From an uncultured bacterium (GTDB taxonomy: Bacteria; Acidobacteriota; Thermoanaerobaculia; Multivoradales; JAHZIX01): DNA of 64,000 bases. Every line of letters starts with the position of its first letter. Within the stretch, counting starts at the first letter, position 1. Below the pieces are notes generated by a model. It saw only the letters and a program-made list of their open reading frames with translations. It ran no database searches and was not told the DNA's origin. Shown one piece after another: positions 37,530 through 54,400 of the stretch. The stretch spans positions 183,049 through 247,048 of the forward strand of contig CBDUPA010000012.1 of the NCBI GenBank assembly GCA_965368975.1. The letters are read 5' to 3'. Position numbers and translations under genes: made by a program.

Positions 37530-40049
37530 ATGGCGCGCGTTTTCCTCAGCTACAGCCGTGATTCCGACCTGCACGAAGAGCGCGTGGTGGAACTGGTCGA
37601 GCGCCTGCGGGACGAGGGCGTCGAGGTGGACTTTGATCGCGACACCAGGCCGACATCCGCGACCGGCCTGTCCGAGGATGTGCGCTCGGAAGATTGGCTG
37701 TCCTGGCTGCGCCAGCGTATCGAGGCGGCGGACATCGTTTTGGTGGTCTGTACGCCGCTCTACCGCCGCCTGTTCGAGGACGACGACGCGTTGGCCGAAG
37801 AAGGCTTCGTGCACGATGGTGTCGGTGTCCAGGGCGTGGTCCTGACGAGCGCCCACTTCCGCATTCAAGGCCCGCGTTTCCTGCCGGTCGTCTTCTCCTA
37901 CGAGGACGCACCCGGCATTCCGAGCGTACTGCAGAACAGCGCCTACTACGTGCTGTGGGAAGGCTTCCCCGCCCTCTCCCGCGCACTGACGGCGGATGCG
38001 CCCTCGGCCCCGTCCGAGACCGCGCCGCGGGTTGGCGTCGTGCGCCCCCGCACTGCACGCAAGGAAGCTACACGCAGCGGGGGCGCGCGCGGGAACACCT
38101 CCGCGTCCGCCAACGTCGTCCCCCTGCGCCCGTCGATCGAACCGTCGCCACCGAAGGCACGCTCCGGCGGCGGTGCGGACAAGCCCTGGCGTCCCCGCCG
38201 GGTCAGCAAGCAGACCGGTCAGCTAGCCGGGCAGCTGGAGCCGGGCATCGTGCTGGCGGGACGTTACGAGTTGGTGCAATTGGTTGGCCGCGGTGGCTTC
38301 GGCACCGTCTGGCAGGCGCGCGACCTGCGCCTCGAGCGCGACGTCGCGGTGAAGGTCTTCCAAGGTTCGCATGCCGACGACCACATCCGTGTCGAACGCT
38401 TCCACCGCGGCGCCCGTCGCATGGCCTCCTTGCAACACGAGGGTGTGGTGCGCGTGCTGGCCGAGGAAGGGGAAGACAGCGGCTTCCACTTCTTCGTCAT
38501 GGAGTATCTGCGGCGCGGCAACCTGCGACAAGTCGTGCTCGAAGGCGAGCTGTCCGGCGATGCCGCCCTCGACCTGATCGCCCAGGTCGGTGAAGCGCTC
38601 GCCTACGCTCACGAACGCGGCGTCGTGCACCGCGACGTCAAGCCGTCGAACATCCTGCTGGACGACGACGGCCGGCCGCAGCTCACCGACTTCGACCTCG
38701 TGCGCGCGCTCGACACCACCGGCGGCACGCGCACCGGCGCTCTGGGCACCTTCGTCTACGCGGCGCCCGAGCAACTCTCCAACGCCAAGAACGTCGGGCC
38801 GCAAGCGGACATCTACGCCCTCGGTATGACCGCCGTCTTCGCCCTGCACGGCGCCGACCTGCCCGCCACCGTGATCCGTCAGCTCGACCCGGTGCTCGAC
38901 GAGCTGGACTGCACGCCTTCGGTACGCGCGGTGCTGGAGAAGGCGCTAGCCTGGGAGCGCGGCGAGCGCTGGGAGACGGTCCGAGAGTTTCTGCAAGCCT
39001 TGAAGGCGGCACGCGAGCCGACCACCGGATCGACCTCCAGCGCCCCGCGTCGCCCTGCCTTGTGGTCACTGCTTACCGTATCCCTGGTCGCTGCAGCGTT
39101 GCTCGCCCTTGTGCTCTTCATCGTGGCCTGGAACCGAGGCTGGTTCGACGCGCGCCCCGCCCCATCGACCACCGCCGCGAACCTCGATATGCACTTCGTC
39201 GAAATCCCGGCCGGCACCTACAACGTCGGCAGCCCCGAGGCCGAGACCGGCCGCGGCGCCGCCGACTGGTTACCGCGCGACGTCACCCTACGCCGAGGCT
39301 TCGCCATCGCCGAGACCGAAGTCACGCAAGCGCAGTGGGCCGCCCTCATGCCCAACGCCCGCGTCGCACACTTCGACACCTGCGGTCCGTCGTGCCCGGT
39401 CGAGCAGGTGAGCTGGTTCGAGGCCGTCGCCTTCGCCAACCGCCTGTCCGCGTTCGAAGGCCGTCAGCTGTGCTACGACGGCTGCGTCGGCGATCCGCGC
39501 GGCGAGACCTACTTTTGCGACACCGTCCAGCGTCGCGCCAGCTGCGATGGGTACCGCCTGCCGAGCGAACTCGAATGGGAGATCGCCGCCCGTGCCGGAA
39601 CCCAGACCGCCACCTACGCCGGTGACCTGGTCCTGCGCGGCCGCCGCGACGTGCCCATCCTCGACGGTATCGCCTGGTACTCTGGCAACAGCGGTGTCGA
39701 CTATGCGGGTGGCATGGACTGCTCCGAATGGGGCGAGATGCAAGCTCCCGCGTCGTCGTGCGGCACCCATCCCGTGGCAGGCAAGGCACCCAACGCGTGG
39801 GGCTTGTCCGACATGCTGGGCAACGTCCGCGAGTGGACCGGCGATTGGTACACCCCCAGCGGCACAGATACGGATCCAGAAGGCTCCGTCAGCGGCTCCG
39901 AGCGCATCTTCCGCGGCGGCTCGTGGGCCAGCCTACCCGCCGAAACGCGCGCCAGCACCCGCGCCTGGAGCCCTCCCGGAACCCGGCTCGCGAACCTCGG
40001 TTTCCGTCTGGTCCGCAGCCTGGACCTGGCCGAGACTGCAGACCCCTGA
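37530..40049 (+). CDS. SEFIR/TIR - Ser/Thr kinase - TM - FGE-sulfatase (C-lectin fold) multidomain protein
   Basis: RVFLSYSRDS...ADIVLVVCT (SEFIR). GRGGFGTVW, VAVK, HRDVKPSN, DFD and YAAPE (Hanks kinase). A TM helix. TEVTQAQW, YRLPSELEWE, PNAWGLSDMLGNVREW and RGGSW...LGFRL (FGE). Starts 3 nt after the NRPS stop. Confidence 0.9.
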   Translation: MARVFLSYSRDSDLHEERVVELVERLRDEGVEVDFDRDTRPTSATGLSEDVRSEDWLSWLRQRIEAADIVLVVCTPLYRRLFEDDDALAEEGFVHDGVGVQGVVLTSAHFRIQGPRFLPVVFSYEDAPGIPSVLQNSAYYVLWEGFPALSRALTADAPSAPSETAPRVGVVRPRTARKEATRSGGARGNTSASANVVPLRPSIEPSPPKARSGGGADKPWRPRRVSKQTGQLAGQLEPGIVLAGRYELVQLVGRGGFGTVWQARDLRLERDVAVKVFQGSHADDHIRVERFHRGARRMASLQHEGVVRVLAEEGEDSGFHFFVMEYLRRGNLRQVVLEGELSGDAALDLIAQVGEALAYAHERGVVHRDVKPSNILLDDDGRPQLTDFDLVRALDTTGGTRTGALGTFVYAAPEQLSNAKNVGPQADIYALGMTAVFALHGADLPATVIRQLDPVLDELDCTPSVRAVLEKALAWERGERWETVREFLQALKAAREPTTGSTSSAPRRPALWSLLTVSLVAAALLALVLFIVAWNRGWFDARPAPSTTAANLDMHFVEIPAGTYNVGSPEAETGRGAADWLPRDVTLRRGFAIAETEVTQAQWAALMPNARVAHFDTCGPSCPVEQVSWFEAVAFANRLSAFEGRQLCYDGCVGDPRGETYFCDTVQRRASCDGYRLPSELEWEIAARAGTQTATYAGDLVLRGRRDVPILDGIAWYSGNSGVDYAGGMDCSEWGEMQAPASSCGTHPVAGKAPNAWGLSDMLGNVREWTGDWYTPSGTDTDPEGSVSGSERIFRGGSWASLPAETRASTRAWSPPGTRLANLGFRLVRSLDLAETADP

Positions 40050-40069: not shown

Positions 40070-40237
40070 CTAGTCCAAGCCGGCCCCGATGCAGATCAGG
40101 CACATTGCAGTCGACATCACGGAGACAGACGTACAGTACCCACCGCCGATCTGCTCAATGTCCAGGTCATGCAGTGTCGTCAGCGTCTCGCGGCTGAGTC
40201 GGAGTTTCTGCAGTCGATATTCGTGTGATTTCTTCAT
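40070..40237 (-). CDS. Lanthipeptide-like RiPP precursor (55 aa, not in ORF track)
   Basis: Hand translation MKKSHEYRLQKLRLSRETLTTLHDLDIEQIGG-GYCTSVSVMSTAMCLICIGAGLD. GGAGGAG RBS, KLxLxRETL leader, double Gly, Cys/Ser/Thr-rich core. Confidence 0.75.
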   Translation of the reverse strand: MKKSHEYRLQKLRLSRETLTTLHDLDIEQIGGGYCTSVSVMSTAMCLICIGAGLD

Positions 40238-40492: not shown

Positions 40493-40693
40493 CTAGGAGC
40501 GGGCGGGCAAGCCTATGGCAATACCGTTCGGGCAGAGTTCGTGCGGGCACAGGCTTTTGTAGGTGTACTCGCAGGTCGGATCGTTTCGACTGTCCACGTC
40601 TCCCTCGACCTGTGCCAAGCCGCCGGCATCCAGGCTTGCGATCGTCTCCCGACTCAAGTTGAACTTGCGGTGGGTGTGTTTCGCTTTCTTCAT
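40493..40693 (-). CDS. Lanthipeptide-like RiPP precursor (66 aa)
   Basis: MKKAKHTHRKFNLSRETIASLD...QVEG leader, core with 3 Cys and several Ser/Thr, AGGAGG RBS. Confidence 0.7.
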   Translation of the reverse strand: MKKAKHTHRKFNLSRETIASLDAGGLAQVEGDVDSRNDPTCEYTYKSLCPHELCPNGIAIGLPARS

Positions 40694-40838: not shown

Positions 40839-43451
40839 TCAGCCACCACCCAGCACCTGCATCTCCGGACCCCGCAGCCCCACCAGCACCGGCTCGCCGT
40901 CTTCGGACACGCGCAGCTCGGCGTACTTGGCGTTGGAGAAGAAGCCCGCTCGACCCTCTTCGAAGAAGAAGCTCTCGATACCCAGGCGCAACTCGTTGCC
41001 GCTGCCCCAACGTTGCAGGCGCTGGCGGTAGTCGAGCAGCTGCTGGTCGGCTTCCAGCGTTGCCGAACCGTCCCAGAAGCTCTCGAATTCGGCGACGCCT
41101 TGGGCGTCGAGTCGCACCACCAGGTGCCCGCGGCGTGGCTGTTCCTGCAGCACTTCCTGCTCGCTGGCGGCTTGGTGCAACTGGTAGTTCAGCACCATGT
41201 AATCGCCCTGCATCAGCGAGCGCGGATCGATGGGACGCAGTTCGAGCAACACTGTGCGGCCGGAGTCGACGATTTGCTGTTTCTGGTAGCTCTGCCAGCC
41301 GGGAATCGCCAGAGCGACGAGGACCAGGGCGGCCAGCGCGCCAAGCTGTGGTGCCGTCCGCGCAGGTCCTGCGTCGGGGTGGCCTTCTCCGGGTGTGCCG
41401 GTTTCGCGCTCGCGTGCCACCAAGCGACGCAACGCGATGGCGGACAGCAATAAGACGAAACCGCTGCCGGTGACCCACAGCGACTTCTCAAGCAGCGGTA
41501 CGTCGAGGCGGTAGTAGAAGTCGAAGAGGAATCCGCCGACGTAGAGCAGGCCGAAGGCCGACAACCAGCGCTCACGACGCCAGAAGCCGAGCACGAGCAG
41601 CAACAGACCGGCGCTGACGCCGGGCACGTCCATGGTCAGCAGGGCGACGACAAGCAGACCGGCGAAGGCGGCGAGGACCGGCGGACGGCTGACCGAGATG
41701 TCGACCTGCCGCAAGGCACGCTGCAGCACAACGAGGGTCAGTGCGGCGAAGGCGAGGGCGAGGATGGGGCGCGGCAGGAAGGTGTCGAGCTGTCCCAAGG
41801 GCCAGGCGTGCAGGGTCGCCAGCAGAGGAATCGCCATGCCGATCGCCAGGCCCAGGCCGAGCGGTCGCCACAGGCTGTGGGTCTCGCCAGCCGGCGCGTC
41901 GGCGAGAGACTTCCTCTGCCACCACAGCGCGATCACGATCGTGGCGACGCCCAGCGCCAGTAGCTGGACGAAGAACGGGTGCAGTTCCAGAGCACCGCAC
42001 AGCCACGTCAACCAGCCGACCAGGGCGAAAGCAGCCGCCAGACGCAGCAGGGGAAGCCGAACGAAGGCCAGTACCGGCAACTGCAACAAGGCCAGGAGCA
42101 AGGGGTGGCTGACATCGCTGCCGCCATCGAGCACCGCGACGAACAGGCACACCTGACCCGTCACTGCGAGAACCCAAGTGAGCTGGACGGCAAACACCGC
42201 CGTCGAGCCACGCATGCCGAGAACCAGGGCACCCAGGTAGAGCAGCGCCCCCAGGACTCCGGCGGCCACGGGGTTGTCCAGCAAGCCGGCGACGCCCAGG
42301 AAGATCGCGAGCACGATCGCGCCGATCCAGGTGCCGAGGCCGACGAAGAGGTGCACGAACCAGGGTGTGTCGCGCGCCACGTCGGAGGAGGTGTCGCTGC
42401 CGTCTAGCGCTTGGAGCTCCGGTTGCGCTGCAGCAGTCTCCTCGGCGTTGCCCTCCACGGGTCGGCTTTCCGTTGGGCTCTCCATTGGCCGAGCCGCGTG
42501 CCGGCGGCGCCAGTCGAGCAACCAGGTCGCCAACAGCCACACCTGGCCACAGATCGCCAGGCCGAGCAGCAGGAAGAAGGCGGTGTCGTCAATTTGAGCG
42601 TACCGCATCAGCTTGCTGATCAACGAGGTCAGCAACACGCACGCTCCCGCCGCCCCGGTGGCGAGCAGCAGCAGGTCCGGGATGCGCCTGCGGTAGGTGG
42701 CATAGATCGCTGCCAGCGCTGCCAGCGCCAGCAGCACGGCGGTGGCGCGCCACGGAAGGCCGCTGCTCGACGTGTCGGTGCCGAAGTTCGACCTGCTGAT
42801 CGCTGTCGCCGCACAACCGACCAGTGACCACAGCCCGAGGCCGGCGGCGGCGTAGATCAGCAGGCTTTGGCGCCCTCCGCGCGGAGCCACGCTGGCGCGC
42901 CGTTCCAGGCTGGCGATGATCAGCGCGTACACCGCCGCCAGTGCTGCCACCACCGGCAGCCCGGGGGCCGAAAACATGCCGGCCTGTGTCACGGACTGGA
43001 AGGTGAACACCCAGGCGGTGAAGTGCAGCAGCGCCAGCCACAGCACCCACCCTCCCTGCAGCCGCGCCAGGGCCGCGAAGCCGGCGAGCACCAGGGTCCA
43101 CAGGGCGTAGATCTCCCAGGCGTCGGCACCGGTTTGGTAGATCTGGCCGTAGAGCGCAATCAGCGGTCCAAAGAGCAGCCCGGCCAGCAAGACCGCCATG
43201 CGGCCGCTCAGCGTTCCGAGACCGAGCACTGCTCCGGTCAGCGCCGAGGCCACCAGCGCCCCGGCCACCAGGCCGAGTCGCTGATTGGGCGTCAGGTCGC
43301 TCCAGTTCGCCGCTACGAAGAACACCACGCCGATGGCCAGCAGCACTGAGCCGAGGCCGAGCAGGTGCAGGCGGGCGAAGCGGTACCAGGCTTCAGCGCC
43401 AGGTGGTGGTGGCAGCGGCGGCGGCGTCAGGGGATCCGGAGAGTCGGACAT
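40839..43451 (-). CDS. Integral membrane DUF2157 / DUF4401-like / GDYXXLXY fusion protein
   Basis: GVVFFVAANW and GQIYQTGAD (DUF2157), many TM helices, FYYRLDVPLLEKS, and LRPIDPRSLMQGDYMVLNY (GDYXXLXY). Confidence 0.88.
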   Translation of the reverse strand: MSDSPDPLTPPPLPPPPGAEAWYRFARLHLLGLGSVLLAIGVVFFVAANWSDLTPNQRLGLVAGALVASALTGAVLGLGTLSGRMAVLLAGLLFGPLIALYGQIYQTGADAWEIYALWTLVLAGFAALARLQGGWVLWLALLHFTAWVFTFQSVTQAGMFSAPGLPVVAALAAVYALIIASLERRASVAPRGGRQSLLIYAAAGLGLWSLVGCAATAISRSNFGTDTSSSGLPWRATAVLLALAALAAIYATYRRRIPDLLLLATGAAGACVLLTSLISKLMRYAQIDDTAFFLLLGLAICGQVWLLATWLLDWRRRHAARPMESPTESRPVEGNAEETAAAQPELQALDGSDTSSDVARDTPWFVHLFVGLGTWIGAIVLAIFLGVAGLLDNPVAAGVLGALLYLGALVLGMRGSTAVFAVQLTWVLAVTGQVCLFVAVLDGGSDVSHPLLLALLQLPVLAFVRLPLLRLAAAFALVGWLTWLCGALELHPFFVQLLALGVATIVIALWWQRKSLADAPAGETHSLWRPLGLGLAIGMAIPLLATLHAWPLGQLDTFLPRPILALAFAALTLVVLQRALRQVDISVSRPPVLAAFAGLLVVALLTMDVPGVSAGLLLLVLGFWRRERWLSAFGLLYVGGFLFDFYYRLDVPLLEKSLWVTGSGFVLLLSAIALRRLVARERETGTPGEGHPDAGPARTAPQLGALAALVLVALAIPGWQSYQKQQIVDSGRTVLLELRPIDPRSLMQGDYMVLNYQLHQAASEQEVLQEQPRRGHLVVRLDAQGVAEFESFWDGSATLEADQQLLDYRQRLQRWGSGNELRLGIESFFFEEGRAGFFSNAKYAELRVSEDGEPVLVGLRGPEMQVLGGG

Positions 43452-43570
43452 GAGGCACCTCTGGGGTAGGGTTGACTGCGGTCATCCTACCCCAGAGGCC
43501 ACTTTCACCTATCGTGGTCTCGATCGGATCGACTCAGGCCGAGTTGATCGAGAGGTTGAGAGCCGGTAGG

Positions 43571-43735
43571 TTACTGGCAGGTCTTGGAGTCGAGCGGCGG
43601 GTCGCAGTAACCGAAGCAAAGACTCGGGCAGGAAAACTCGGTGCGCAGTCCACCTTGCACGTCGGTCAGTCGGACGTCGCGCAGGTGGATCAGAGTTTCA
43701 CGTCGGAGTTGGAGCTTCTTGGTTCTCTTCTGCAT
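43571..43735 (-). CDS. Lanthipeptide-like RiPP precursor (54 aa)
   Basis: MQKRTKKLQLRRETLIHLRDVRLTDVQGG-LRTEFSCPSLCFGYCDPPLDSKTCQ. GAGGAG RBS before the ATG at 43735. Confidence 0.75.
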   Translation of the reverse strand: MQKRTKKLQLRRETLIHLRDVRLTDVQGGLRTEFSCPSLCFGYCDPPLDSKTCQ

Positions 43736-43926
43736 GTTTTCTCTCCTCATGTTGAGATCGAATGATGGGGAATCATATCTCATTCTGATTCGAGCATGCA
43801 TGCGATTCATCTCGGCGACCAGGAGCGGGTTTTCCCAGTGCTTCTTCTGAGCTGAGACCGCGTTCTGATAGAGCCAACCGTTGAGAGCATGCGGTCGAGC
43901 AGGTCAGCTGCTTTGGGTCGAGACTC

Positions 43927-43968
43927 GGCCAAGGCCAAGGCCAAGGCCAAGGCCGGGGGTGGGGGGGC
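43927..43968 (+). repeat. (GGCCAA)x4 tandem repeat fused to a G-tract motif shared with the FGE cassette tails
   Basis: ggccaa x4 then ggccgggggtgggggggc. The ccaaggccgggg(g)tgggggg(g)c motif recurs at 48132 and 51345. Confidence 0.7.
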
Positions 43969-44087
43969 ATCCTTCCTGAATCCACCTTTCCGCCCTTTCT
44001 CATTCCTTCATTCCGCTGCACTCTCTAGACAACGGCATCCCCTGGCCGCCTTCCGCGATCCAGCGGAGATGTCTGAGAGGAGACTCC

Positions 44088-44213
44088 ATGTCTAGCTTTC
44101 ACAGTGCAGTAGGAACCCTTCTGAGTCTGGTTCTCCAGCCCGAGTTGCAGAGAGGCCCAGGGATCGATCCCGATGGATTCGTTGTCCAGGGTGCGGGATT
44201 CGATCCGAACTGA
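44088..44213 (+). CDS. Small peptide (41 aa) with two GxG[IF]DP[DN] repeats (not in ORF track)
   Basis: GAGAGGAG RBS. Translation MSSFHSAVGTLLSLVLQPELQRGPGIDPDGFVVQGAGFDPN. A strong hairpin follows. Confidence 0.65.
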   Translation: MSSFHSAVGTLLSLVLQPELQRGPGIDPDGFVVQGAGFDPN

Positions 44214-44242
44214 GGGGGGACTGGGCTGAGAAGAGCCTTACC

Positions 44243-44273
44243 GGCGGCCAGGTTCGAACCTGGCCGCCTTCTT
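44243..44273 (+). terminator. Probable intrinsic terminator/attenuator hairpin
   Basis: ggcggccaggt-tcga-acctggccgcc perfect stem followed by ttctt. Confidence 0.55.
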
Positions 44274-44376
44274 GGTCGGTGCACTTTCTGCTGTTGAAAT
44301 GAGCTCTCTTGTCACGGTAAGCAACTTAGGATGCACGATGAAGTCAGCCGACGAACTACGGAGGAACCCGTTCAGG

Positions 44377-45663
44377 ATGCATATCAATCGTGACTTGCTG
44401 CTGGCCTTCTATCGAGGAGATATCCGGGCCGAGGAACTGCTCCGGCTGGCGCAGGAGCATTTGCTCTCAGTCTGTCGTCAGTGTCGCGACGAGTTCTCGG
44501 CCTTCTGTGAAGAGCTGAGCGATGAGCACGGCCCGCAGGCACAGCGAACGTCCGAGTCACCGTCGCAGGACGCAGTGCACCGGGCGCAGCAGTGGGAGCG
44601 GATGCTGGATCGGCTACCGCGGGACGTACAGCTCGACAAGGTGCACCGCGCCCGTTCCCGGTTTCGAGGTCCAGCCTTCACCTGCCTGATGTTGCAGCGC
44701 GCCCGAGCCGCGACTCCGGCAGATCCTGGAAGTGCTCTGCACTCTGCCCGTTTGGCGGAAGTCGCGATCTTCCTGGATGAACAGCACGTGCATCTACATG
44801 CTCTGGCGATCGCCTATCAAGCGAATGCACTGCGAGTCTTGGGGCGAGACGAGGAAGCCGCGCAGCTGTTTCTAGCCCTGCGCCTGTGCGCGAGCAGCGT
44901 CACCGACACGCGGACGCTCGCCGAGATCGCGAGTTTCGAAGGCTCGATGGCCATGGATCACCGCCACTTCACCGAAGCCGCGCAGCGCTTCTCGCGCGCC
45001 GTCAGTCTCTTCCACTTGCTCGGTGATGTGGAAGGTGAAGCTCGCAATCTGCTGAAACTGGGATACAACGCCTACTTCTCCGGCCGTCTTCATGCCGCTG
45101 TTCTCGCGACGCAGGAAGCCCTCGACTTGATCGTTGACGACGAGAGCTCCCTCTACTTGGCGGCGCGCCACAATCTGGGCCTGTTCTTGGTGGCTGACGG
45201 AGAAGGCGACGTTGTCGCTCAGATGCTCTGTGAGGACTTGCCGCTCTATCGGAAGTGGGCGAACGAGGCGGCGCATTGGCATACCGCCTTCTCTTGGTTG
45301 TCGGGCAAGGTGGCTTTTGTACGCGGGAACCTGGAACAAGCCGAAGCGCTGTTTCTACAGACGCGTGGTCGGTTCGATCAGGAAGGTAACGAGTACGACG
45401 AGGCTCTTGTGGGGCTGGATCTGCTGCGAGTGTACTTGGTGCAGGGTCGTTTCGAGGACGTGGGGGACTTGGCGGAGTCTCTGTTGGTCGTCTTCGCCCG
45501 CTACCGTTTGACGGCAGAGGCGCAAGAACCATTGGCGGTCTTCGAGGTCGCTAGCCGACAGCGGCGAGTCGGGATGCAGTTGGTGCTGAGACTGGCGTCA
45601 CACCTGGAACAGGGATGCAGAGCGAAGCAGGATGAGCCCTACCAGCCCGAGGTCTTCTGCTGA
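44377..45663 (+). CDS. Tetratricopeptide-repeat protein with an N-terminal HxxxxCxxC (zf-HC2-like) motif
   Basis: EHLLSVCRQC near the N terminus and helical repeats (AYQANALRVLG, AAQRFSRAVSLF, AARHNLGLFL, AEALFLQTR, ALVGLDL). GGAGG upstream of ATG 44377. Alternative start 44338. Confidence 0.75.
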   Translation: MHINRDLLLAFYRGDIRAEELLRLAQEHLLSVCRQCRDEFSAFCEELSDEHGPQAQRTSESPSQDAVHRAQQWERMLDRLPRDVQLDKVHRARSRFRGPAFTCLMLQRARAATPADPGSALHSARLAEVAIFLDEQHVHLHALAIAYQANALRVLGRDEEAAQLFLALRLCASSVTDTRTLAEIASFEGSMAMDHRHFTEAAQRFSRAVSLFHLLGDVEGEARNLLKLGYNAYFSGRLHAAVLATQEALDLIVDDESSLYLAARHNLGLFLVADGEGDVVAQMLCEDLPLYRKWANEAAHWHTAFSWLSGKVAFVRGNLEQAEALFLQTRGRFDQEGNEYDEALVGLDLLRVYLVQGRFEDVGDLAESLLVVFARYRLTAEAQEPLAVFEVASRQRRVGMQLVLRLASHLEQGCRAKQDEPYQPEVFC

Positions 45664-45730
45664 GAGTTGCCTTTCCCAATCCCCCGATTCCGTGATACAT
45701 CCTTCGGCAGACTCAGAAACCGGAGGAAAC

Positions 45731-46159
45731 ATGCCCCGCGACCGAGTGTTCTTGAGCTATAGCCGCGAAGATGAACAGTTCATGAAGGAAGCCCGCGTGC
45801 AATTGAAGGCGGCCGGGATCGACACGTTCATTGACCAGGAGATCCCGATCGGCGCCAAGTGGGAGGATCACATCCACACTGCCCTCACCGACGCCCGCGT
45901 CGCGTTCTTGCTGGTGAGTGCCCACTTCGTGACCTCGGATTTCATCCGTAAGGTCGAACTGCCCGCGATTCTGCCGGCGGCTGAGAGTCAGGACTTGACC
46001 ATCTTCTGGGTCCAGGTCAGCGCGACTCCGATTCCCAAAGACATCGACCGCTACCAAGCCGCGCACCGCAATCCGGCGCTCGATCAGCTGAGCAAGCCAG
46101 AGCGGAACCAGGTATGGGCGGACATCTGTAGGAAGCTCGCCCCGCTCTTCGGCCCTTAG
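45731..46159 (+). CDS. TIR domain protein (probably the frameshift-separated N terminus of the downstream kinase)
   Basis: GGAGG RBS. RVFLSYSRED, TFIDQEIPIGAKWEDHI and LLVSAHFVTSDFIRKVELP, with the catalytic Glu present. Confidence 0.85.
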   Translation: MPRDRVFLSYSREDEQFMKEARVQLKAAGIDTFIDQEIPIGAKWEDHIHTALTDARVAFLLVSAHFVTSDFIRKVELPAILPAAESQDLTIFWVQVSATPIPKDIDRYQAAHRNPALDQLSKPERNQVWADICRKLAPLFGP

Positions 46160-46344: not shown

Positions 46345-48042
46345 GTGCATGCTGGCGACTTGCTGCAGGACGGGCGTTACAAGCTGTGGAACGTGATCGG
46401 CAGCGGTGGCTTTGCCACGGTGTGGCGAGCCTATGACCGGAAACGCCAGCAGCCCGTCGCGATCAAGCTTCTCCACGGCCAGTACGCCCAGGACCGTTCC
46501 CGCCGCGAGCGCTTCTTCCGCGGTGCCAAGCGGATGGCTTCGCTGCAGCATTCCGGGATCGTGAAGGTGTTGGATGAAGAACAGGTGGACGACGGCCACT
46601 ACTTCTTCGTCATGGAATACGTCGACGGGCAGGACTTGCATCGAGCCTTGCGCGATGGCCACGTCGGGCCGGAGCAAGGCCGTGAGCTGGTGCTGCAGGT
46701 GGGCGAGGCGCTGGCGTATGCGCACGAGCAGGGCATGATCCACCGCGACGTCAAGCCCGCGAACATTCTGCTGGATGCACAGGGGCGCCCGAAGCTGACG
46801 GATTTTGATCTCGTGCGAGCACAGGACACGACCGGCGGTACCCGCACGGGAGCGATCGGCACGTTCGTCTATGCCGCGCCGGAGCAGCTGGAGAACGCCA
46901 AGAACGTCGACGAGCGAGCAGATGTCTATGGGTTGGGCATGACGCTGGTGGCGTTGCTCCATGGGAAGCCGTTGCCAGCGACAGTGATGCGGAACCTCGG
47001 CAAGCTGATCGACGCGCTTGACTGCGCCAAGCATCTGCGCCGAGTGCTGCACCGGGCGGTGGACTGGGAACTGGATCAGCGCTACGAGAGCGTCGGGGAG
47101 TTCTTGCAAGCCCTGAAACCCGCACCACCCCGTCCCGACCCTCCACCGCCACCCATTCAGGTCGAGCCGGTGGCGGCAGAGCCCGAGGTCCCTCGAGGCT
47201 CGAGCATCGTGCGCCTTGCTGCCGACCAGCCGGCCGCAGGCACGCTGTGGGAGGGACCGCTCGGGATGCGTTTTCGCTACGTGCCGGCGGGGGTGTATGT
47301 CGTCGGGAGTCCGGAGGACGAGCCCGGGCGGTTCGGCTGGGAGTGGCTGCCGCACGAGGTCGAGCTGACGCGTGGCGTCTGGATGGCGGAAACACCGGTG
47401 ACGCAGGCGCAGTGGGGGCAGCTGGTGCCAGACAATCCGTCTCGTTTCTCCGACAACCGTTGGGAGCACCCGGTCGAGCGGGTGAACTGGTACGAGGCCG
47501 TGGCCTTTGCTAATCGGCTTTCCGTGGAGGCCGGACTTGAGCCCTGCTACTCGTTGAACGGGCAGAAAGGTGACCTGGGAAAGGACTTCAAGTGCGTGTC
47601 GGCCGAACTGCTGCTGCCGCTGCGCAGTGGCTTCCGGCTGCCGACGGAGGCGGAGTGGGAGATCGCTGCGCGCGCTGGGACGGCCGGGGCACGCTATGCG
47701 GAGAACCTGGACGATATCGCTTGGTACAGGGAGAACAGCGGCCAGCGGACGCATTCGGTAGGTCGCAGGCAACCCAATGCCTGGGGTCTGCACGACCTGT
47801 TGGGCAACGTCAGGGAGTGGGTGGGGGATAGATTCAGCGGCGACCAGCCAGCAACGCCGCGTGTGGATCCACAGGGTCCTGAGGACGGCCCGGCCCGCGT
47901 GTGTCGCGGTGGTTCGTGGGGCGCCCATGCGCGGTACGTCCGTGCGGCCTACCGCGACGGCGACCAGCCTGGCTACCGCTACGGCTCCCTGGGCTTCCGC
48001 CTGTCTCGAGGTCCCCAGCCAGGAGGGGCGGAGCCCCGGTAG
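46345..48042 (+). CDS. Ser/Thr kinase - FGE-sulfatase (C-lectin) protein; frame is open and homologous back to 46132
   Basis: GSGGFATVW, VAIK, HRDVKPAN, DFD and YAAPE, a Pro-rich linker, then FRLPTEAEWE, NAWGLHDLLGNVREW and RGGSW...LGFRL. Confidence 0.88.
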   Translation: MHAGDLLQDGRYKLWNVIGSGGFATVWRAYDRKRQQPVAIKLLHGQYAQDRSRRERFFRGAKRMASLQHSGIVKVLDEEQVDDGHYFFVMEYVDGQDLHRALRDGHVGPEQGRELVLQVGEALAYAHEQGMIHRDVKPANILLDAQGRPKLTDFDLVRAQDTTGGTRTGAIGTFVYAAPEQLENAKNVDERADVYGLGMTLVALLHGKPLPATVMRNLGKLIDALDCAKHLRRVLHRAVDWELDQRYESVGEFLQALKPAPPRPDPPPPPIQVEPVAAEPEVPRGSSIVRLAADQPAAGTLWEGPLGMRFRYVPAGVYVVGSPEDEPGRFGWEWLPHEVELTRGVWMAETPVTQAQWGQLVPDNPSRFSDNRWEHPVERVNWYEAVAFANRLSVEAGLEPCYSLNGQKGDLGKDFKCVSAELLLPLRSGFRLPTEAEWEIAARAGTAGARYAENLDDIAWYRENSGQRTHSVGRRQPNAWGLHDLLGNVREWVGDRFSGDQPATPRVDPQGPEDGPARVCRGGSWGAHARYVRAAYRDGDQPGYRYGSLGFRLSRGPQPGGAEPR

Positions 48043-48202: not shown

Positions 48203-48367
48203 ATGCAAGATGCTGACCGCGTCGAACCCAAGCCGCCTACCGAACTCGACGAGCACGACCGCGAACTGATCCGCTACATGCTCAGCTTGACGCCCGGCGA
48301 GCGGCTGCGCTACATCCAGAGCTTTGCCAACGGCGTCGAGAAGCTGAAGCATGCCCGTCGGGTCTGA
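48203..48367 (+). CDS. Small protein (54 aa), putative partner/antitoxin of the downstream nucleotidyltransferase
   Basis: MQDADRVEPKPPTELDEHDRELIRYMLSLTPGERLRYIQSF, carrying a D..LI...L.LTP.ERL motif. Overlaps the start of the next gene. Confidence 0.65.
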   Translation: MQDADRVEPKPPTELDEHDRELIRYMLSLTPGERLRYIQSFANGVEKLKHARRV

Positions 48368-48839
48368 CTTTCTCGACCTCCTCCGCGTGCTCGTCGACCA
48401 CGAGGTCGACTTCATTGTTGTCGGCGGGATTGCGGCTGTGTTGCACGGTTCTCCCGTCGTCACAGCGGATGTCGATGTGCTGTTCGACGCCGAGGCGGCC
48501 AACATCCGAAAGCTGAGTGCGGCACTCAGCCAGATTGACGCGCACTACTTCGATCCTGCCGGGCGGCGGATTGCGCCGGATGAGGGCAAGTTGCAGAGCT
48601 TCCGGTTGAACTTGCTACAGACCCGGCTGGGACGGCTCGACGTTTTGCGCACGATTGGACGAGAGCAGACGTATGCAGATCTCTTCGAGCGTACCGTGGA
48701 ATTTGAAGTGGACGACTTGCGCTTGCGAGTCCTCGATCTGGATGCGTTGATCGAGGTCAAGGAAGTCGCGGGGCGGGAGAAAGATCTTTACGGTTTGACT
48801 TTCTTGCGCAGCCTGCGAGACGAAGTCGACGGCGGTTAG
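48351..48839 (+). CDS. Nucleotidyltransferase (Pol-beta superfamily, DUF6036/AbiEii-like)
   Basis: FIVVGGIAAVLHGSPVVTADVDV (GG...T.D.D) and C-terminal LIEVKEVAGREKD. Confidence 0.8.
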   Translation: MPVGSDFLDLLRVLVDHEVDFIVVGGIAAVLHGSPVVTADVDVLFDAEAANIRKLSAALSQIDAHYFDPAGRRIAPDEGKLQSFRLNLLQTRLGRLDVLRTIGREQTYADLFERTVEFEVDDLRLRVLDLDALIEVKEVAGREKDLYGLTFLRSLRDEVDGG

Positions 48840-48869: not shown

Positions 48870-51251
48870 ATGGCAACTACATCTTCACGGGGTGGAGCCC
48901 CGCCACGAGTCTTCATCTCGTATAGCCACGACTCCCAGGAGCATCGTGGCCGTGTGCTCGTGTTGTCGAATCGCCTGTGCGCGGACGGGGTCGACGTCCA
49001 CCTCGACCAATACGAGGTTTCGCCGCCGCAGGGTTGGCCGCAGTGGATGCTCGACCAGATCGAAGAATCTAACTTCGTCCTGGTGGTGTGTACCGAGGTG
49101 TATCACCAGCGCTTCCGAGGCAAGGGGGCGGGGCGGGGCGTCAAGTTTGAAGGCGCGGTGCTGACGCAGACGGTGTACGACGCGGATAGCCAGAATGACC
49201 GGTTTATCCCAGTTCTTTTCTCGTCGGAGGATGCGGATCACCGGCCGGTGGTGTTGCGTGGGGCGTCGTTCTACGTGCTGGACAAGGACTACGAGGCTTT
49301 GTATCGGCACTTGACCGGGCAATCGGCGACGCCGAAGCCGGAGCTGGGTACGGCGCGGGTGCTACCGCCGCGCGAGCCGCCCGAACACAGGGTGGTCGAG
49401 GATGTTGAGGAGGCAGGTGAGGAGCCACCCTCCGAGCTGGATGAGCTGAAAGCGATACGAGAAGCCTTGCGTGAGCGCGGGCGGGCTACGGCGCTGCTCG
49501 ATCACGAGATCCTGGAATGGAAGCGTGAAGAGCGGGACGGCAGTCAGCTTCATGAACGCGCCGAACTGCTCGGCCGCTACAAGCTGCGCTCGATCTTGGG
49601 GAGTGGTGGTTTTGCAACCGTATGGCGGGCTTGGGACAAAGTGGAAGGTTGCCTGGTTGCTGTCAAGGTCTTGCACGGCCAGCACCGCCAGGATAGAACC
49701 CGTCGAGACCGCTTTTTCCGTGGTGCCGCCAGGATGGCTTTGCTGGAGCATCCGGGGGTTACCAAGGTGCTGGAGCCGCAGCTAGAAGATCAAGGGCAGT
49801 GCTTCTTCGTCATGGAGTACCTGCCGGGCGGAGACCTGCGCCGAGCCGTCTTGAGCGGCGAGGTCGACGAGGCGCGTGCGGTGGAGGTGATTCGCGAAGT
49901 CGGAGAGGTCTTGGCCTATGCCCACGGTCAAGGGGTCATCCATCGGGACGTCAAACCGGCCAACATCCTGTTGACGGCGGACGGCCGGCCGAAGCTAACG
50001 GATTTCGATTTGGTGCATGCGGTCGATACGACCGGCGGTACCCGCACTGGAGCCCTTGGGACCTTTCTGTATGCTGCTCCCGAACAACTACACAGTGCCA
50101 AGGGAGCCGACGACCGGGCGGACGTCTACGGCTTGGCGATGACTCTGGCTTTCGCATTGCACGGAGATGAGCTGCCGCTGACCATTCTTCGTTCCCCCGA
50201 AATCCTTGTCCGGTCCTCGGGCTGTACTTCGATAGTGCGCGAAGCTGTGCTCAGGGGGATCGAGTGGGACTTGGATCAGCGCTACGAGAGCGTCGGGGAG
50301 TTCTTGCAAGCCCTGAAACCCGCACCACCCCGTCCCGACCCTCCACCGCCACCCATTCAGGTCGAGCCGGTGGCGGCAGAGCCCGAGGTCCCTCGAGGCT
50401 CGAGCATCGTGCGCCTTGCTGCCGACCAGCCGGCCGCAGGCACGCTGTGGGAGGGACCGCTCGGGATGCGCTTTCGCTACGTGCCGGCGGGAGTGTACGT
50501 CGTCGGGAGTCCGGAGGACGAGGCAGAGCGGTTTGACCGGGAGTGGTTGCCGCACGAGGTCGAGCTGACCCGTGGCCTCTGGATGGCGGAGACGCCAGTG
50601 ACGCAGGCACAGTGGAGCCAGTTGGTGCCCGAGAATCCGTCTCGTTTCTCCGACAATCGTTGGGAGCATCCAGTCGAGAACGTGAGCTGGTACGAAGCTG
50701 TGGCCTTTGCGAATCGGCTTTCCGAGGAGGCCGGACTCGAGCCCTGCTACTCGTTGAACGGGCAGACGGGTGAGCTGGGGAAGGACTTCGAGTGTGCGTC
50801 AGCCGAGTTGCTGCAGCCGCTGCGCAGTGGCTTCCGGTTGCCGACGGAGGCGGAGTGGGAGATCGCCGCGCGTGCTGGGACGGCTGGGGCGCGCTATGCG
50901 GAGAACTTGGATGAGATCGCTTGGTACCGAGAGAATAGCGGCAAGCGGACGCATTCGGTAGGTTGCAGGCAACCCAATGCTTGGGGTTTGCACGACATGT
51001 TGGGCAATGTCTGGGAGTGGGTGGGGGATAGATTCAGCAGCGACCAGCCAGCAACGCCGCGTGTGGATCCACAGGGTCCTGAGGACGGCCCGTCCCGCGT
51101 GTCCCGCGGTGGTTCGTGGTCCACGGACGCGCAGTACGTCCGCGCGGCGTACCGCGGCGGCGGCGAGCCTGGCTACCGCAGCGACTTCCTGGGCTTCCGC
51201 CTGTCTCGAGGTCCCCAGCCAGGCGGGGCGGAGCCCCGGAACGAGTCCTAG
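48870..51251 (+). CDS. SEFIR/TIR - Ser/Thr kinase - FGE-sulfatase (C-lectin) multidomain protein
   Basis: RVFISYSHDS, DVHLDQY, GWPQWM and GVKFEG (SEFIR). Kinase motifs GSGGFATVW, HRDVKPAN and DFD. C-terminal FGE domain. No TM. Confidence 0.92.
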   Translation: MATTSSRGGAPPRVFISYSHDSQEHRGRVLVLSNRLCADGVDVHLDQYEVSPPQGWPQWMLDQIEESNFVLVVCTEVYHQRFRGKGAGRGVKFEGAVLTQTVYDADSQNDRFIPVLFSSEDADHRPVVLRGASFYVLDKDYEALYRHLTGQSATPKPELGTARVLPPREPPEHRVVEDVEEAGEEPPSELDELKAIREALRERGRATALLDHEILEWKREERDGSQLHERAELLGRYKLRSILGSGGFATVWRAWDKVEGCLVAVKVLHGQHRQDRTRRDRFFRGAARMALLEHPGVTKVLEPQLEDQGQCFFVMEYLPGGDLRRAVLSGEVDEARAVEVIREVGEVLAYAHGQGVIHRDVKPANILLTADGRPKLTDFDLVHAVDTTGGTRTGALGTFLYAAPEQLHSAKGADDRADVYGLAMTLAFALHGDELPLTILRSPEILVRSSGCTSIVREAVLRGIEWDLDQRYESVGEFLQALKPAPPRPDPPPPPIQVEPVAAEPEVPRGSSIVRLAADQPAAGTLWEGPLGMRFRYVPAGVYVVGSPEDEAERFDREWLPHEVELTRGLWMAETPVTQAQWSQLVPENPSRFSDNRWEHPVENVSWYEAVAFANRLSEEAGLEPCYSLNGQTGELGKDFECASAELLQPLRSGFRLPTEAEWEIAARAGTAGARYAENLDEIAWYRENSGKRTHSVGCRQPNAWGLHDMLGNVWEWVGDRFSSDQPATPRVDPQGPEDGPSRVSRGGSWSTDAQYVRAAYRGGGEPGYRSDFLGFRLSRGPQPGGAEPRNES

Positions 51252-51366: not shown

Positions 51367-51476
51367 GCTGCAACTTCCCTCCCCCCGTCCCGTTCCTAAC
51401 CCCCAGCCGCACACCCCCCGCGATAGGCTCGCTCTCGACGGCATTCCACCGTCCTTGACGTATGAGGTACTTGGCG

Positions 51477-54400
51477 ATGGCTGGCAAATCCGCGACGGCG
51501 AAACCGTCTTTCTACCCACTCTCTCCGCTGCAACAGGGCATGCTCTTCCACTGCCTGGAGGCACCGGGGACAGGGCTCTACCACGAGCAGACGACTCTGC
51601 TCTTCGACGGGCAGCTCGACCTCGGCGCGTTCGAGCAGGCGTGGCGGCACGTCATCGAGCGGCACGAGGTGTTGCGCACGTCGTTCGCGTGGGAGGGGTT
51701 GAAGCAGCCGGTGCAGGTGGTGCGGACAGGGATGAAGGTGCCGTTGCACGTGGTGGATGCGCGACGCTGGGCTTTGACGGAGGAGAACGGGGCGGCGCAC
51801 CTGCTGCGGCGGGTGGCGCGGGCGGAGCGGGGGTTGGGGTTCGAGCTGACGCGGGCGCCGGTGTGGCGCTTGACGTTAGTGCGCCTGCCTGTGGAGAGGG
51901 CACCGGTTGCGAGGATACCGGCTGAGGAGGAGCGCCAGCGGTGGGGGCTGCTGTGGTCGTTCTCGCACCTGCTGCTCGACGGCTGGTCGGTGCCGCTGCT
52001 GTGGCACGAGGTGTTTTCCGTGTACCAGGCCCAGGTAGCAGGGACATCGGTGGTGGGAGCGCCTGTGCCCGGGTTGCCGGTGGTGCCGCCGTTCCGGCGC
52101 TACATCGCGTGGCTGTACCGGCAGGATACGTCGAAGGCGCAGAGTTGGTGGACGCGGAAGATGGCTGGACTGCGACGGCCGTTGCGCATGACGGAAGCCT
52201 GGGGTGAGCTGGACGCCGGGTCGGCGGCTGCAGCAGCAGGGGGCCTGGAACCGTCCCGGGCGCCGACGTTGCAGGCGCATCGGCTGGTGCCGGCGGCGGC
52301 GGTGTCTACGGTGCGGGCGTGGGGACGTGAGCAAGGGTTGACGCTCAACACACTGGTGCAGGGGGCGTGGGCGTTGCTGGCGTCGCGCTACGTGCAGCAC
52401 GACGACGTGGTGTTCGGCATCGTGGTGTCGGGCCGGCCGTCGCAGCTGCCGGGCGTCGAGCGCATGGTGGGGATGTTCATCAACACCGTGCCGCTGCGTG
52501 TGCAGGTGCCGACGGCGGGCAGCGGGCGTACGGTGGGCGCGTGGGTGAGCGAGCTGCAGCGGCAGGCAGGCGAGATGCAGCGCTTCGAGCACACGCCGCT
52601 GGCGCAGATCCAGAGCTGGAGTGAGTTGCCTGCGCGCGAGGCGTTGTTCGATTTCCTGCTCGTCTTCGAGAACCAACCCCGGGCGCAGCAGCCCCAGGAG
52701 AAGGATAGAGCTGGACTGCGGGCGGAGCTCTTGACCGGCGAGCCGGTGAGCAATTACCCGCTGACGCTGGCGGTGACGCCGCCGCTCGACGATACGCATG
52801 CGCTGCGTTTCCACCTGACAGCGCACCGTGGGCGGGTCGAAGAGAGCGCCATGGAGCGTCTGCTGGGGCACCTGGAGACGCTGCTGCTCGGCCTGGGTGA
52901 GGTGCCCGAGACGCCGCCGGCGTGGTTGCCGATGTTGACCAGCTCGGAGCGGAGGCAGTTGCTAGAGTTGGGGTCGGCGCCAGTCGGGCCTGCGGGCGAT
53001 CCAGTGCCAGCCGATCCAGTGCCAGCCGATTCAGTGCCAGCCGATTCAGTCACAGACATCGTCGAGCGCGTCTTGGCGGTGGCGGCTGAGCGGCCGGAGG
53101 CGGTCGCGCTGAGCTTTGCTGCCGTGGAGGGGCCGGACCAGGTTCTGACGTATGGCGCGCTCGATGCGGCGAGTGCGGCCCTGGCAGCGCGGTTGCGCGC
53201 GGCTGGGGTTGGTTCGGCGGAAGTGACGGTGGCGTTGCAGCTACCGCGCGGGGTGGAGCTGGCGGTGGCGGTGCTGGCGGTGCTGCGCGCGGGCGGGGCG
53301 TACGTGCCGCTGGACGTCGAGCAGCCGGCGTCGCGCTTGGCGTTTGTTCTTGAGGATTGTGGGGCGTCGGTGGTGGTGGGGGAGGGGGACCTGGCGGGTT
53401 TTGACGGACAGGTGGTGAAGGTGCATCCGAGGTTGTTCCGTTCTGGTGTAGGGGCACCCCCGTGTGGGTGCCCTCCCGGGATGGGGGACGGATCCGGATG
53501 CGGCTGTGCCGCAGGGCAGGCACATGGGCCTGCCCCTACCCAGAAAGATTGGCCCCCTGGCGCCCTCGCCTACCTCATCTATACCTCCGGTACCACCGGT
53601 ACACCCAAGGGGGTCGAGGTCCGTCGACGCAACCTCTCCGCCTTTCTCGACGCTGTCGTCCGCACCTTCGACCTCGGTGCTGATGAACGCTTACCCTGCC
53701 TGGCGCCGCATCCGTTCGACATCTTCGGTTTCGAGCTTTTGGCACCCTGGTGCAGCGGTGGCACGGCGGTGCTGGTGCCCTTGACGCCGATCCTCGATCT
53801 CGACGACCTGGTCCGCCGCTTGCCGGGGTTCTCGCGCGTTCACGCGGTGCCGGCATTGTGGGCCCAGCTGCTTGACCGGCTGGAAGCGTCCGGCGATCTC
53901 GACGGCTTGCAGCGCTTGCGCACGGTATTCGTGGGCGGAGACGTGGTGCCGCCGGCCCTGCTGCGACGGTTGCGGCAGCTCTTGCCGAGGGTCGAGACGC
54001 GGGTGCTGTACGGGCCGACGGAGGCGACGGTGCTCAGCAGCAGTCGAGCGCTGGTGCCGGGGGCCGAGGGCGATGCGCCGCTGGCGTCGACGCCGGCGGG
54101 AGGCAGCCTGGGACGGGCGCTGCCGGGGGTGCGACTTAGCGTGCGCGACCGGCTGGGTCGACGGCTACCGCTCGGCCTGGTGGGTGAGCTGGTGATCGAG
54201 GGCGCGGGCGTGACGCGCGGCTATCGCGGGCGCCCGGGGCAGACGGCGGAGGTGTTCGTGCCGGCGCCGCGGGTCGGGGGCGCATGGACCGAGGGCGTAC
54301 AAGTCGAGGGAACGCGCGCCTACCGCAGCGGCGACCGGGTGCGTTGGCGCGTCGGCGGTACGGCGGCGGAGCTGGAGTTTCTGGGGCGCGTGGATCAGCA

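Follow-up and report, generated by a model that had tools for sequence, protein, structure and literature searches.

We analysed a 64-kb stretch of DNA (the window) from the 7.1-Mb genome of an uncultured acidobacterium (59 contigs; genome labelled G000, contigs C1, C2 and so on), and found that a 41-residue open reading frame (ORF) and the tetratricopeptide repeat (TPR) protein gene that follows it on the same strand form a pair that recurs many times in this genome and in its relatives. The small ORF belongs to a family of pre-peptides that carry, usually at their C-terminus, one or more copies of an eight-residue unit of the form G-x-x-hydrophobic-D-P-x-G (the DPxG unit). We think there is about an even chance that the window pair is one of many paralogous copies of a peptide-receptor module that works like Rap/Phr, with an output resembling that of an anti-sigma factor. 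A first-pass annotation of the window had pointed to the elements of such a system, namely a small ORF with a ribosome-binding site (RBS), a hydrophobic stretch and two repeats, then a hairpin, then a co-oriented gene whose product contains HLLSVCRQC, and all of these are present where it had placed them.

The peptide gene and the TPR gene recur as a pair

The window TPR protein has 16 matches in its own genome at E≤0.001, and a profile search sets 15 strong copies (E≤2.5e-52) apart from generic TPR proteins. Upstream of 11 of the 16 matches lies a same-strand small ORF with the DPxG unit, often repeated (for instance GAALDPNG three times or GSLIDPIG twice), and the sequence of the unit differs in every paralogue. 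A further candidate on contig C28 was not counted as a module, since its DPNG-containing ORF and a weak TPR match are on opposite strands. Across the same order the TPR protein is found at E≤1e-10 in 30 of 41 genomes, many with 10–25 copies; when the best locus of each genome is considered, a DPxG-ending ORF lies upstream in 22 of the 30, and variants with N-P in two more. These 30 loci and 100 further matches were searched with a strict form of the motif, G..[ILMVFWYAT][DN]P.G. Of these 130 loci, 77 have a same-strand match upstream and seven a match on the reverse strand, so the pairing is not due to chance. Relaxed variants, judged by eye, are present in around 19 of the remaining loci. The first-pass annotation had expected short DPxG ORFs to flank the homologues of the TPR protein, and this is what most of the loci show.

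No further conserved gene was found around the 15 own-genome paralogues, and the unit of inheritance is the peptide gene together with the TPR gene; the 72 neighbouring ORFs around 14 own-genome places likewise share no common enzyme family. This bears on one alternative, that the small ORF is the precursor of a ribosomally synthesized and post-translationally modified peptide (RiPP), with the TPR protein as its scaffold or recognition factor. The precursors are repeated and multi-core, the TPR part has a weak NCBIfam match to HaaT, a TPR protein of a RiPP cluster (E 1.5e-4, far below cut-off), and the window module and two of its paralogues lie beside non-ribosomal peptide synthetase (NRPS) genes, with RiPP-like ORFs near. 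Yet no modifying enzyme, protease or transporter is conserved beside the 15 paralogues, the conserved Gly, Asp, Pro and Asn are not usual targets of modification, and the links to sigma factors and helix-turn-helix (HTH) domains described below point to regulation. We regard this explanation as extremely unlikely.

A family of DPxG pre-peptides

Most pre-peptides are 80–130 residues long and consist of four parts: a Sec-type signal and its Ala-x-Ala-like site, an amphipathic helix rich in Trp/Phe, a linker of low complexity, and one to six near-identical units, which usually lie at the very C-terminus and often follow Arg or Lys. Among 98 candidate ORFs, a few of which are spurious frames, a simple heuristic finds a signal-peptide-like N-terminus in 76, a loose pattern for the Trp-rich amphipathic helix fits 78, and the motif lies at most two residues from the C-terminus in 54. 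Searches of Pfam and NCBIfam with 20 pre-peptides gave no family. A PD40 match at one locus (L023) was rejected as a propeller, as it has no passing stretch and arises from repeated PFVDPDG.

Comparison of 84 pairs of units within the same precursor gives 206 synonymous against 138 nonsynonymous codon differences. Positions 5, 6 and 8 are fixed by the search pattern in this comparison, and Gly1, which is free, shows 49 synonymous against 10 nonsynonymous differences. Because the units differ mostly by synonymous changes, the small ORFs are under selection at the level of the protein.

A minority of mini-forms, to which belong the window peptide, several own-genome paralogues and those of loci L030, L031, L037, L073 and L090, have 25–45 residues and consist of a hydrophobic helix and the unit only, with no signal peptide. 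These leaderless forms suggest another arrangement, in which the TPR protein would bind the C-terminus, and perhaps also the Trp-rich helix, of a leaderless or unexported peptide inside the cell, with no re-import; it might do so in the manner of a TPR secretion chaperone, which becomes available for regulation when its client has gone, or the small protein might act like an anti-anti-sigma factor. The frequent position of the motif at the extreme C-terminus speaks for it, since a free carboxylate is the classic ligand of TPR clamps, and relatives in which the TPR part is fused to an AraC-type HTH recall the pairs of TPR chaperone and AraC activator of type III secretion. However, Sec substrates are normally exported fast, the presence of several identical units per precursor with a basic residue before each fits proteolytic release better, and no secretion apparatus is linked to the modules in the own-genome neighbourhoods. 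Binding of this kind strikes us as unlikely.

At the level of the transcript, strong hairpins directly 3′ of the peptide stop codon are common in 72 homologous loci (mean best free energy −24.1 kcal/mol, compared to −21.1 kcal/mol for coding controls), with a T-rich tail in 32 of the 72. For 16 loci including that of the window, Rfam gave no match at E≤0.1. A separate observation is a recurrent two-tier hairpin in the 5′ untranslated regions (UTRs) of the peptide genes, 25–50 nucleotides before the start codon and directly before the Shine-Dalgarno sequence. It has an apical stem of GGC/GCC (often CCGGC/GCCGG) and a five-nucleotide loop starting with AUG or CUG (for example in L012, L014, L059–L061, L067, L076, L092, L095, L117 and L146); 39 of 95 upstream regions agree with a loose pattern, the hairpin has no match in Rfam, and the window copy is a weak version.

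The product of the window ORF (44088–44213) is MSSFHSAVGTLLSLVLQPELQRGPGIDPDGFVVQGAGFDPN, with the hydrophobic stretch AVGTLLSLVL and two units, and reads from its sequence as a minimal, signal-peptide-less form of the DPxG-repeat family. The block from RBS to start codon, GAGGAGAC...ATGTC, is kept in the closest paralogue. The hairpin that follows (44243–44268) has an 11-bp stem with 9 G-C pairs and the tail TTCTTGGT, and is the sole terminator-like site in a scan of positions 43500–45800.

The TPR protein

The ORF of the TPR gene ends at 45663 and in the ORF listing begins at TTG 44272, with an ATG at 44338. The most likely start is instead the ATG at 44377 (MHINRDLL), because 18 aligned homologues begin at the same point, because the closest paralogue keeps AGGATGCATATCAA while the upstream ATG is without a counterpart there, and because a promoter-like motif occupies positions 44310–44336. 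An AlphaFold model of the protein is all-helical (mean predicted local distance difference test score, pLDDT, 87): three short helices at the N-terminus are joined by a disordered linker to a TPR superhelix, and around 16 paired helices can be seen. The six highest hydrophobic windows sit within the helical body and none is at the N-terminus, so the protein is probably soluble and cytoplasmic.

Modelled alone, residues 1–50 give three helices with pLDDT >90, and a cluster of His and Cys residues is located at the junction of helices 2 and 3. Across 19 aligned sequences H2, C33 and C36 are invariant and H28 is nearly so. The classical motif of zinc anti-sigma factors is H-x3-C-x2-C, and this is the spacing that the first-pass annotation had invoked; the cluster itself is confirmed, but as H-x4-C-x2-C (HLLSVCRQC), both in the window protein and in most of the 19 sequences, with the canonical spacing found in L024, L027 and P0090. 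The last of these, P0090, matches zf-HC2 with 29.6 bits against a cut-off of 22.2, and its comparison to the family N-terminus by hhalign places a one-residue gap (E 0.001, probability 21%). Among 20 N-termini tested with PF13490, three gave matches below threshold.

For the remainder of the protein, Pfam and NCBIfam return generic TPR families: the window protein has TPR matches below threshold (17 bits), and TPR_12 is found in all 19 aligned homologues (best E 1.1e-17). In structural comparisons with VIA-align the top values are all tied, with LGN/Pins at Z 23.4, the RapJ-PhrC complex (PDB ID: 4gyo) at Z 22.8 (root-mean-square deviation 3.6, 293 aligned), phage Rap with pheromones at Z 22.6 and NprR at Z 22.3, and Foldseek likewise has Rap and NprR complexes among its top matches. 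As modelled, the fold belongs to the class of peptide-binding TPR superhelices that includes LGN, Rap and NprR. A co-fold of the TPR alignment with the 41-residue peptide scored 0.01, and as it was made without control runs we count it neither for nor against binding.

Links to ECF sigma factors and a promoter-type motif

At the homologous loci, 43 same-strand upstream ORFs end near the TPR start. We compared 28 of these to Pfam, 22 that abut the TPR gene (176–307 residues) and six that are longer, and left out 15 that are mostly peptide frames. All but one of the 22 abutting ORFs encode a sigma factor of the extracytoplasmic function (ECF) type (Sigma70_r2, mostly also r4_2), which amounts to 21 of the 130 loci; the six longer ORFs are unrelated enzymes. 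Most of these sigma genes end within a few bases of the TPR start or overlap the TPR gene, which is the usual arrangement of a sigma factor and its anti-sigma factor, and a DPxG peptide gene precedes the sigma gene in 13 of the 21. For instance, one own-genome paralogue has a peptide gene with a signal peptide, then a sigma gene (C2:253005–253616), then the TPR gene. Four further own-genome sigma genes of the linked group (C13:5717–6361, C13:6688–7302, C24:64180–64773 and C1:16850–17398) do not lie beside a TPR gene. Other relatives have an AraC-type HTH fused to the TPR part, or an XRE-type HTH in longer fusions. In three genomes of one family (G029, G010 and G038; 7.5–10 Mb) the single member is such an AraC-HTH-TPR fusion (L032, L033 and L035), with no DPxG ORF upstream.

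A bipartite promoter-like motif lies in front of the window TPR gene. In 13 of 103 loci its class, TGTC(A/C)C-N16-19-N-Y-A-C-(T/C), stands 53–80 nucleotides ahead of the TPR start, and in 9 of 95 it stands 81–99 nucleotides ahead of the peptide start, with no reverse-complement matches and no match among 309 coding controls. In the own genome 47 sites match a stricter form, roughly the chance level (~61), though six of the 47 fall within the 1.5 kb upstream of 6 of the 15 modules (22.5 kb in total), compared to ~0.07 expected. We rejected the reading of TGTC(A/C)C...GCAC as a housekeeping promoter, as none of 48 tRNA upstream regions carries it. The motif heads several peptide-sigma-TPR operons, and ECF sigma operons are usually autoregulated, which suggests that it is the promoter of the linked sigma group. 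The first-pass annotation had guessed that the divergent RiPP-like precursor or the TIR-kinase genes are under the control of the module. This guess finds no support: the sole match within the window is the one before the TPR gene.

Elsewhere in the own genome, C21:68838–69400 holds three tandem units, each made of TGTCACG-N16-GCACT, ~45 nucleotides of near-identical sequence and a strong terminator (GCGGCG...CGCCGCC and a T run), with a fourth copy of the motif just upstream; these look like small-RNA genes driven from the same type of promoter. The motif also precedes lanthipeptide-leader-like small ORFs (C11:197904, C11:198884 and C1:200175), an MbtH-like gene (C24:18959) and genes for secreted proteins (C6:193434 and C8:209377). 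Its presence before lanthipeptide-leader-like ORFs leaves the guess about the neighbours of the window module some room. Together, these motif-headed genes may form a regulon.

In another reading, the TPR protein would be a regulator linked to a sigma factor, with the small secreted protein simply the product of a gene under its control, and the two proteins would never touch. The product might then be a surface-active or antimicrobial peptide with a Trp-rich helix, an adhesive or metal-binding repeat, or a signal to other cells. Consistent with this, the two genes have separate signals, a terminator after the peptide gene and a promoter-like motif before the TPR gene, most pre-peptides are predicted to be exported while the TPR protein would be cytoplasmic, the conservation of the Trp-rich amphipathic helix suggests an activity of its own, and the motif also stands before other small secreted peptides and the units that resemble small RNAs. 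A target gene, however, need not stay with one regulator paralogue through dozens of duplications with the unit differing each time; the best-conserved part is a repeated eight-residue C-terminal unit, often after a basic residue, as is typical of released ligands; and the predicted receptor fold is of a peptide-binding type. We therefore hold mere co-regulation to be rather unlikely.

A model of the module and points against it

In the peptide-receptor model that we prefer, the functional part of the pro-peptide would be the C-terminal G-x-x-hydrophobic-D-P-x-G unit, in one or several copies. A Sec signal would export the pro-peptide in most relatives, the window copy retaining only a short hydrophobic N-terminus. 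The unit would be released, often after Arg or Lys, would re-enter the cell, and would bind the concave face of the TPR superhelix of its cytoplasmic partner; the own genome encodes five binding proteins of the oligopeptide type (SBP_bac_5), none of them beside a module. Binding would in turn alter, in one direction or the other, the action of the N-terminal zinc-motif domain on an ECF-type sigma factor, presumably its sequestration. The sigma factor would be encoded next door in around one sixth of the modules and elsewhere for the rest, including that of the window. It would read TGTC(A/C)CG-N16-GCAC promoters, and as one of these stands before the window TPR gene, the module may feed back on itself.

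Several observations weigh against this model. The window protein has no match to Pfam zf-HC2 (PF13490), and fold searches with its N-terminal domain are unspecific, with all scores at Z <4: the best VIA value is Z 3.9, and known anti-sigma factors appear only as weak matches (RsiW at Z 3.2 and rank 15, RseA with a Foldseek E of 9.2). The structural match to Rap and NprR is no better than that to eukaryotic LGN, and the sequence similarity is that of generic TPR proteins, with RapH at E 1.3e-5 among ~100 matches in a profile search of the PDB. A sigma gene lies beside the TPR gene in only one of the 15 own-genome paralogues and none adjoins the window module, and some other alternative sigma factor could be the one that uses the promoter motif. 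Around a quarter of the homologous loci lack a peptide ORF in the 1.3 kb examined, and the conserved Trp-rich helix has no role in the model. The core of the module outside the Firmicutes that the first-pass annotation proposed gains strong comparative support from the recurrent pairing, from the adjacency to ECF genes in relatives, from the HTH fusions and from the predicted Rap/NprR/LGN-type fold, and is weaker at the window copy itself, where the zinc domain stays below the zf-HC2 threshold and a sigma gene is missing from its side.

The remaining points concern the window copy. Its peptide lacks a basic n-region, so that export is doubtful, and its second unit (GAGFDPN) lacks the final Gly, so that the copy may be decaying. 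A protein word-index search gave eight matches and no close orthologue of this copy (best foreign match 55% identical), and searches of genome contigs and metagenome contigs gave no relative of the window protein; the conservation of the copy itself thus rests on its closest paralogue, which is 57% identical. It follows that the family could be real and the 41-residue ORF a decayed, non-functional remnant, as its missing signal peptide would also allow. Relative to the paralogue, though, the RBS, the ATG, the DPN-coding block, the terminator and the promoter block are all kept, and in the partner gene, which is intact, no invariant residue has been lost, which makes decay very unlikely in our view.

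Comparison with known systems

The closest parallel is offered by the Rap-Phr or RRNPP(A) systems found in Bacillota and in their phages (Rap, NprR-NprX, PlcR-PapR, Rgg-SHP and AimR-AimP). As in those systems, a small pro-peptide gene adjoins one that encodes a cytoplasmic TPR receptor of ~400 residues, the putative active part is at the C-terminal end of the pro-peptide and sometimes in several copies, and a Sec signal is present in most pro-peptides. A single genome holds many paralogous pairs, as in some Paenibacillus for which a published account gives more than 25 (PMC7425212). Like Rap, the window protein has a small helical N-terminal domain as its likely effector instead of a DNA-binding domain, and its predicted fold aligns with RapJ-PhrC, phage Rap and NprR. 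Unlike them, the related loci come from Acidobacteriota, which are diderm, rather than from Bacillota or their phages and plasmids; the TPR protein of the module shows no specific sequence relationship to those receptors beyond generic TPR; its N-terminal domain has a His/Cys zinc motif and is anti-sigma-like; and the linked output is an ECF sigma factor rather than a response regulator or HTH. The fixed D-P-x-G frame of the unit and the conserved Trp-rich helix of the pro-peptide are likewise peculiar to the module, for which peptide binding and import, established in RRNPP(A), are what we infer.

A different parallel is found in type III secretion, where TPR chaperones double as co-activators of AraC-type regulators. 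There too, a TPR protein that binds a secreted client controls transcription, and some relatives of the module are fused to an AraC-type HTH. In contrast, the module has no linked secretion system, its clients would be Sec substrates or leaderless mini-peptides, and its TPR protein is ~3 times larger.

With the zinc anti-sigma factors RsrA, ChrR, RslA and RsiW (zf-HC2) the window protein shares a His near its start and, where helices 2 and 3 meet, a His...Cys-x2-Cys cluster, and the gene order in the 21 sigma-linked relatives, where the TPR gene directly follows and mostly overlaps the ECF gene, is theirs; the relative P0090 lies above the zf-HC2 threshold. It departs from them in the H-x4-C-x2-C spacing and in the sub-threshold score of the window protein, in that most copies, including that of the window, have no adjoining sigma gene, and in that the putative sensor, a TPR superhelix, is probably soluble and cytoplasmic and is accompanied by a peptide gene. 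The parts of the ECF re-classification that we draw on (PMC7826278) give soluble anti-sigma factors for only 10 groups, mention no TPR-peptide type, and mention TPR only for the extensions of ECF42 and for a FecR-like factor of ECF267. DdvA-DdvS of Myxococcus xanthus, in which a transmembrane anti-sigma factor has a TPR domain, similarly joins an anti-sigma factor, a TPR sensor domain and an ECF sigma factor, but, to the extent of the accounts used here, DdvA spans the membrane, has no paired peptide gene described and is not paralogue-expanded (PMC11506125, PMC6061681).

The neighbourhood of the module in the window

The island that holds the module is flanked by two giant hybrid genes of NRPS and polyketide synthase (PKS) type, both with Condensation, AMP-binding, PP-binding, ketosynthase and acyltransferase domains (Table 1). 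Around the module lie four genes of a TIR/SEFIR-kinase-FGE-sulfatase family, two full-length, one without the TIR domain and one with TIR only; the copies starting at 46345 and 48870 have long identical stretches in their C-terminal halves, so their duplication is recent. Three small ORFs on the opposite strand have leaders resembling those of class I lanthipeptides (K-K-L-x-L-x-R-E-T-L ... G-G) and Cys-rich tails, and score 14.8, 22.6 and 17.7 bits with NF038153 (cut-off 22), in the order of the table; no LanB or LanC gene lies between them.

Table 1. Coordinates of the module and of neighbouring features in the window.
Feature	Position	Strand	Basis
Pre-peptide gene, 41 residues	44088..44213	+	ORF listing; homologous ORFs upstream of TPR paralogues and homologues
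RBS of peptide gene, GAGAGGAG	44075..44082	+	Sequence; GGAG 5 nucleotides 5′ of ATG
Unit 1, GPGIDPDG, preceded by Arg	44154..44177	+	Fits family motif G-x-x-hydrophobic-D-P-x-G
Unit 2, GAGFDPN, at protein end, without final Gly	44190..44210	+	Read from ORF
Terminator-like hairpin and T-rich tail, 3′ of peptide gene	44243..44278	+	Terminator scan
Bipartite promoter-like motif TGTCACG-N16-GCAC, before TPR gene	44310..44336	+	Motif search; kept in paralogue
TPR protein gene, 428 residues; predicted soluble, three-helix zinc-motif domain then TPR superhelix	44377..45663	+	ORF, alignment, AlphaFold model, fold search
N-terminal domain, residues 1–50, H2/H28/C33/C36 (H...H-x4-C-x2-C), anti-sigma-like	44377..44526	+	Alignment invariance, model
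TPR superhelix, residues ~60–413, presumed peptide-binding part	44554..45615	+	TPR_12 in homologues, AlphaFold model, VIA-align
Hybrid NRPS/PKS gene, 8,946 residues	10686–37526	+	Domain search
Hybrid NRPS/PKS gene, at least 4,179 residues, open end	51462–63998	+	Domain search
TIR/SEFIR-kinase-FGE-sulfatase family	37530–40049, 45731–46159, 46345–48042, 48870–51251	+	Domain search
DUF6036-type nucleotidyltransferase gene, between the 46345 and 48870 copies	48351–48839		Domain search
Three lanthipeptide-leader-like small ORFs	40070–40237, 40493–40693, 43571–43735	-	NF038153
DUF2157/DUF4401/GDYXXLXY membrane protein, among the lanthipeptide-like ORFs	40839–43451	-	Domain search
Hexanucleotide microsatellite (GGCCAA)x4 then GGCC, divergent intergenic region between RiPP-like ORF and peptide gene	43927–43954		Sequence
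Type I restriction enzyme R subunit, C-terminal part	5–1474	+	T1RH-like_C, E 1e-110

Distribution and significance

By the labels of their sequence records, related loci come from metagenome-assembled genomes of Acidobacteriota, Thermoanaerobaculia or Holophagales. In a survey of 121 genomes sampled across the phylum, in which at most 14 candidates per genome were scored, the family is found at E≤1e-30 in seven. Besides the own genome, these are one of the order's two other genomes and, from the other orders of the class, five out of seven. None of the 111 genomes of other Acidobacteriota classes contains it at this threshold. A library of 1.84 billion proteins holds at least 4,389 cluster representatives at the same threshold. 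Searches of the literature, supplements being outside their scope, returned no description of a DPxG peptide/TPR module.

To our knowledge, and as far as the sources used here extend, peptide signals read by TPR receptors in the cytoplasm are known only in Bacillota and the mobile elements of these bacteria, and we know of no cell-cell signalling peptides described for Acidobacteriota, which are among the most abundant bacteria of soil and are hard to culture. With 10–25 copies per genome, the module must be a major regulatory device of these organisms. In its most extended form the peptide-receptor reading becomes a network of many channels, in which 10–25 orthogonal pairs of DPxG octapeptide and receptor per genome are secreted, cut, re-imported and read by TPR anti-sigma factors, and converge on a handful of ECF sigma factors that drive not only the modules but also tandem small RNAs, precursors resembling those of lanthipeptides, and natural-product clusters. 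We see this as a serious possibility, though somewhat improbable in its entirety. If true, a Gram-negative phylum would for the first time be shown to have peptide quorum sensing that follows RRNPP logic, and such sensing would for the first time have a sigma factor as output. The parts are short and can be synthesized (octapeptides, a soluble protein of 428 residues and a defined promoter motif), so that binding, release of sigma and activation of a reporter could be tested in vitro or in a heterologous host. As several copies lie beside NRPS/PKS genes, the peptides might also serve to induce silent natural-product clusters.

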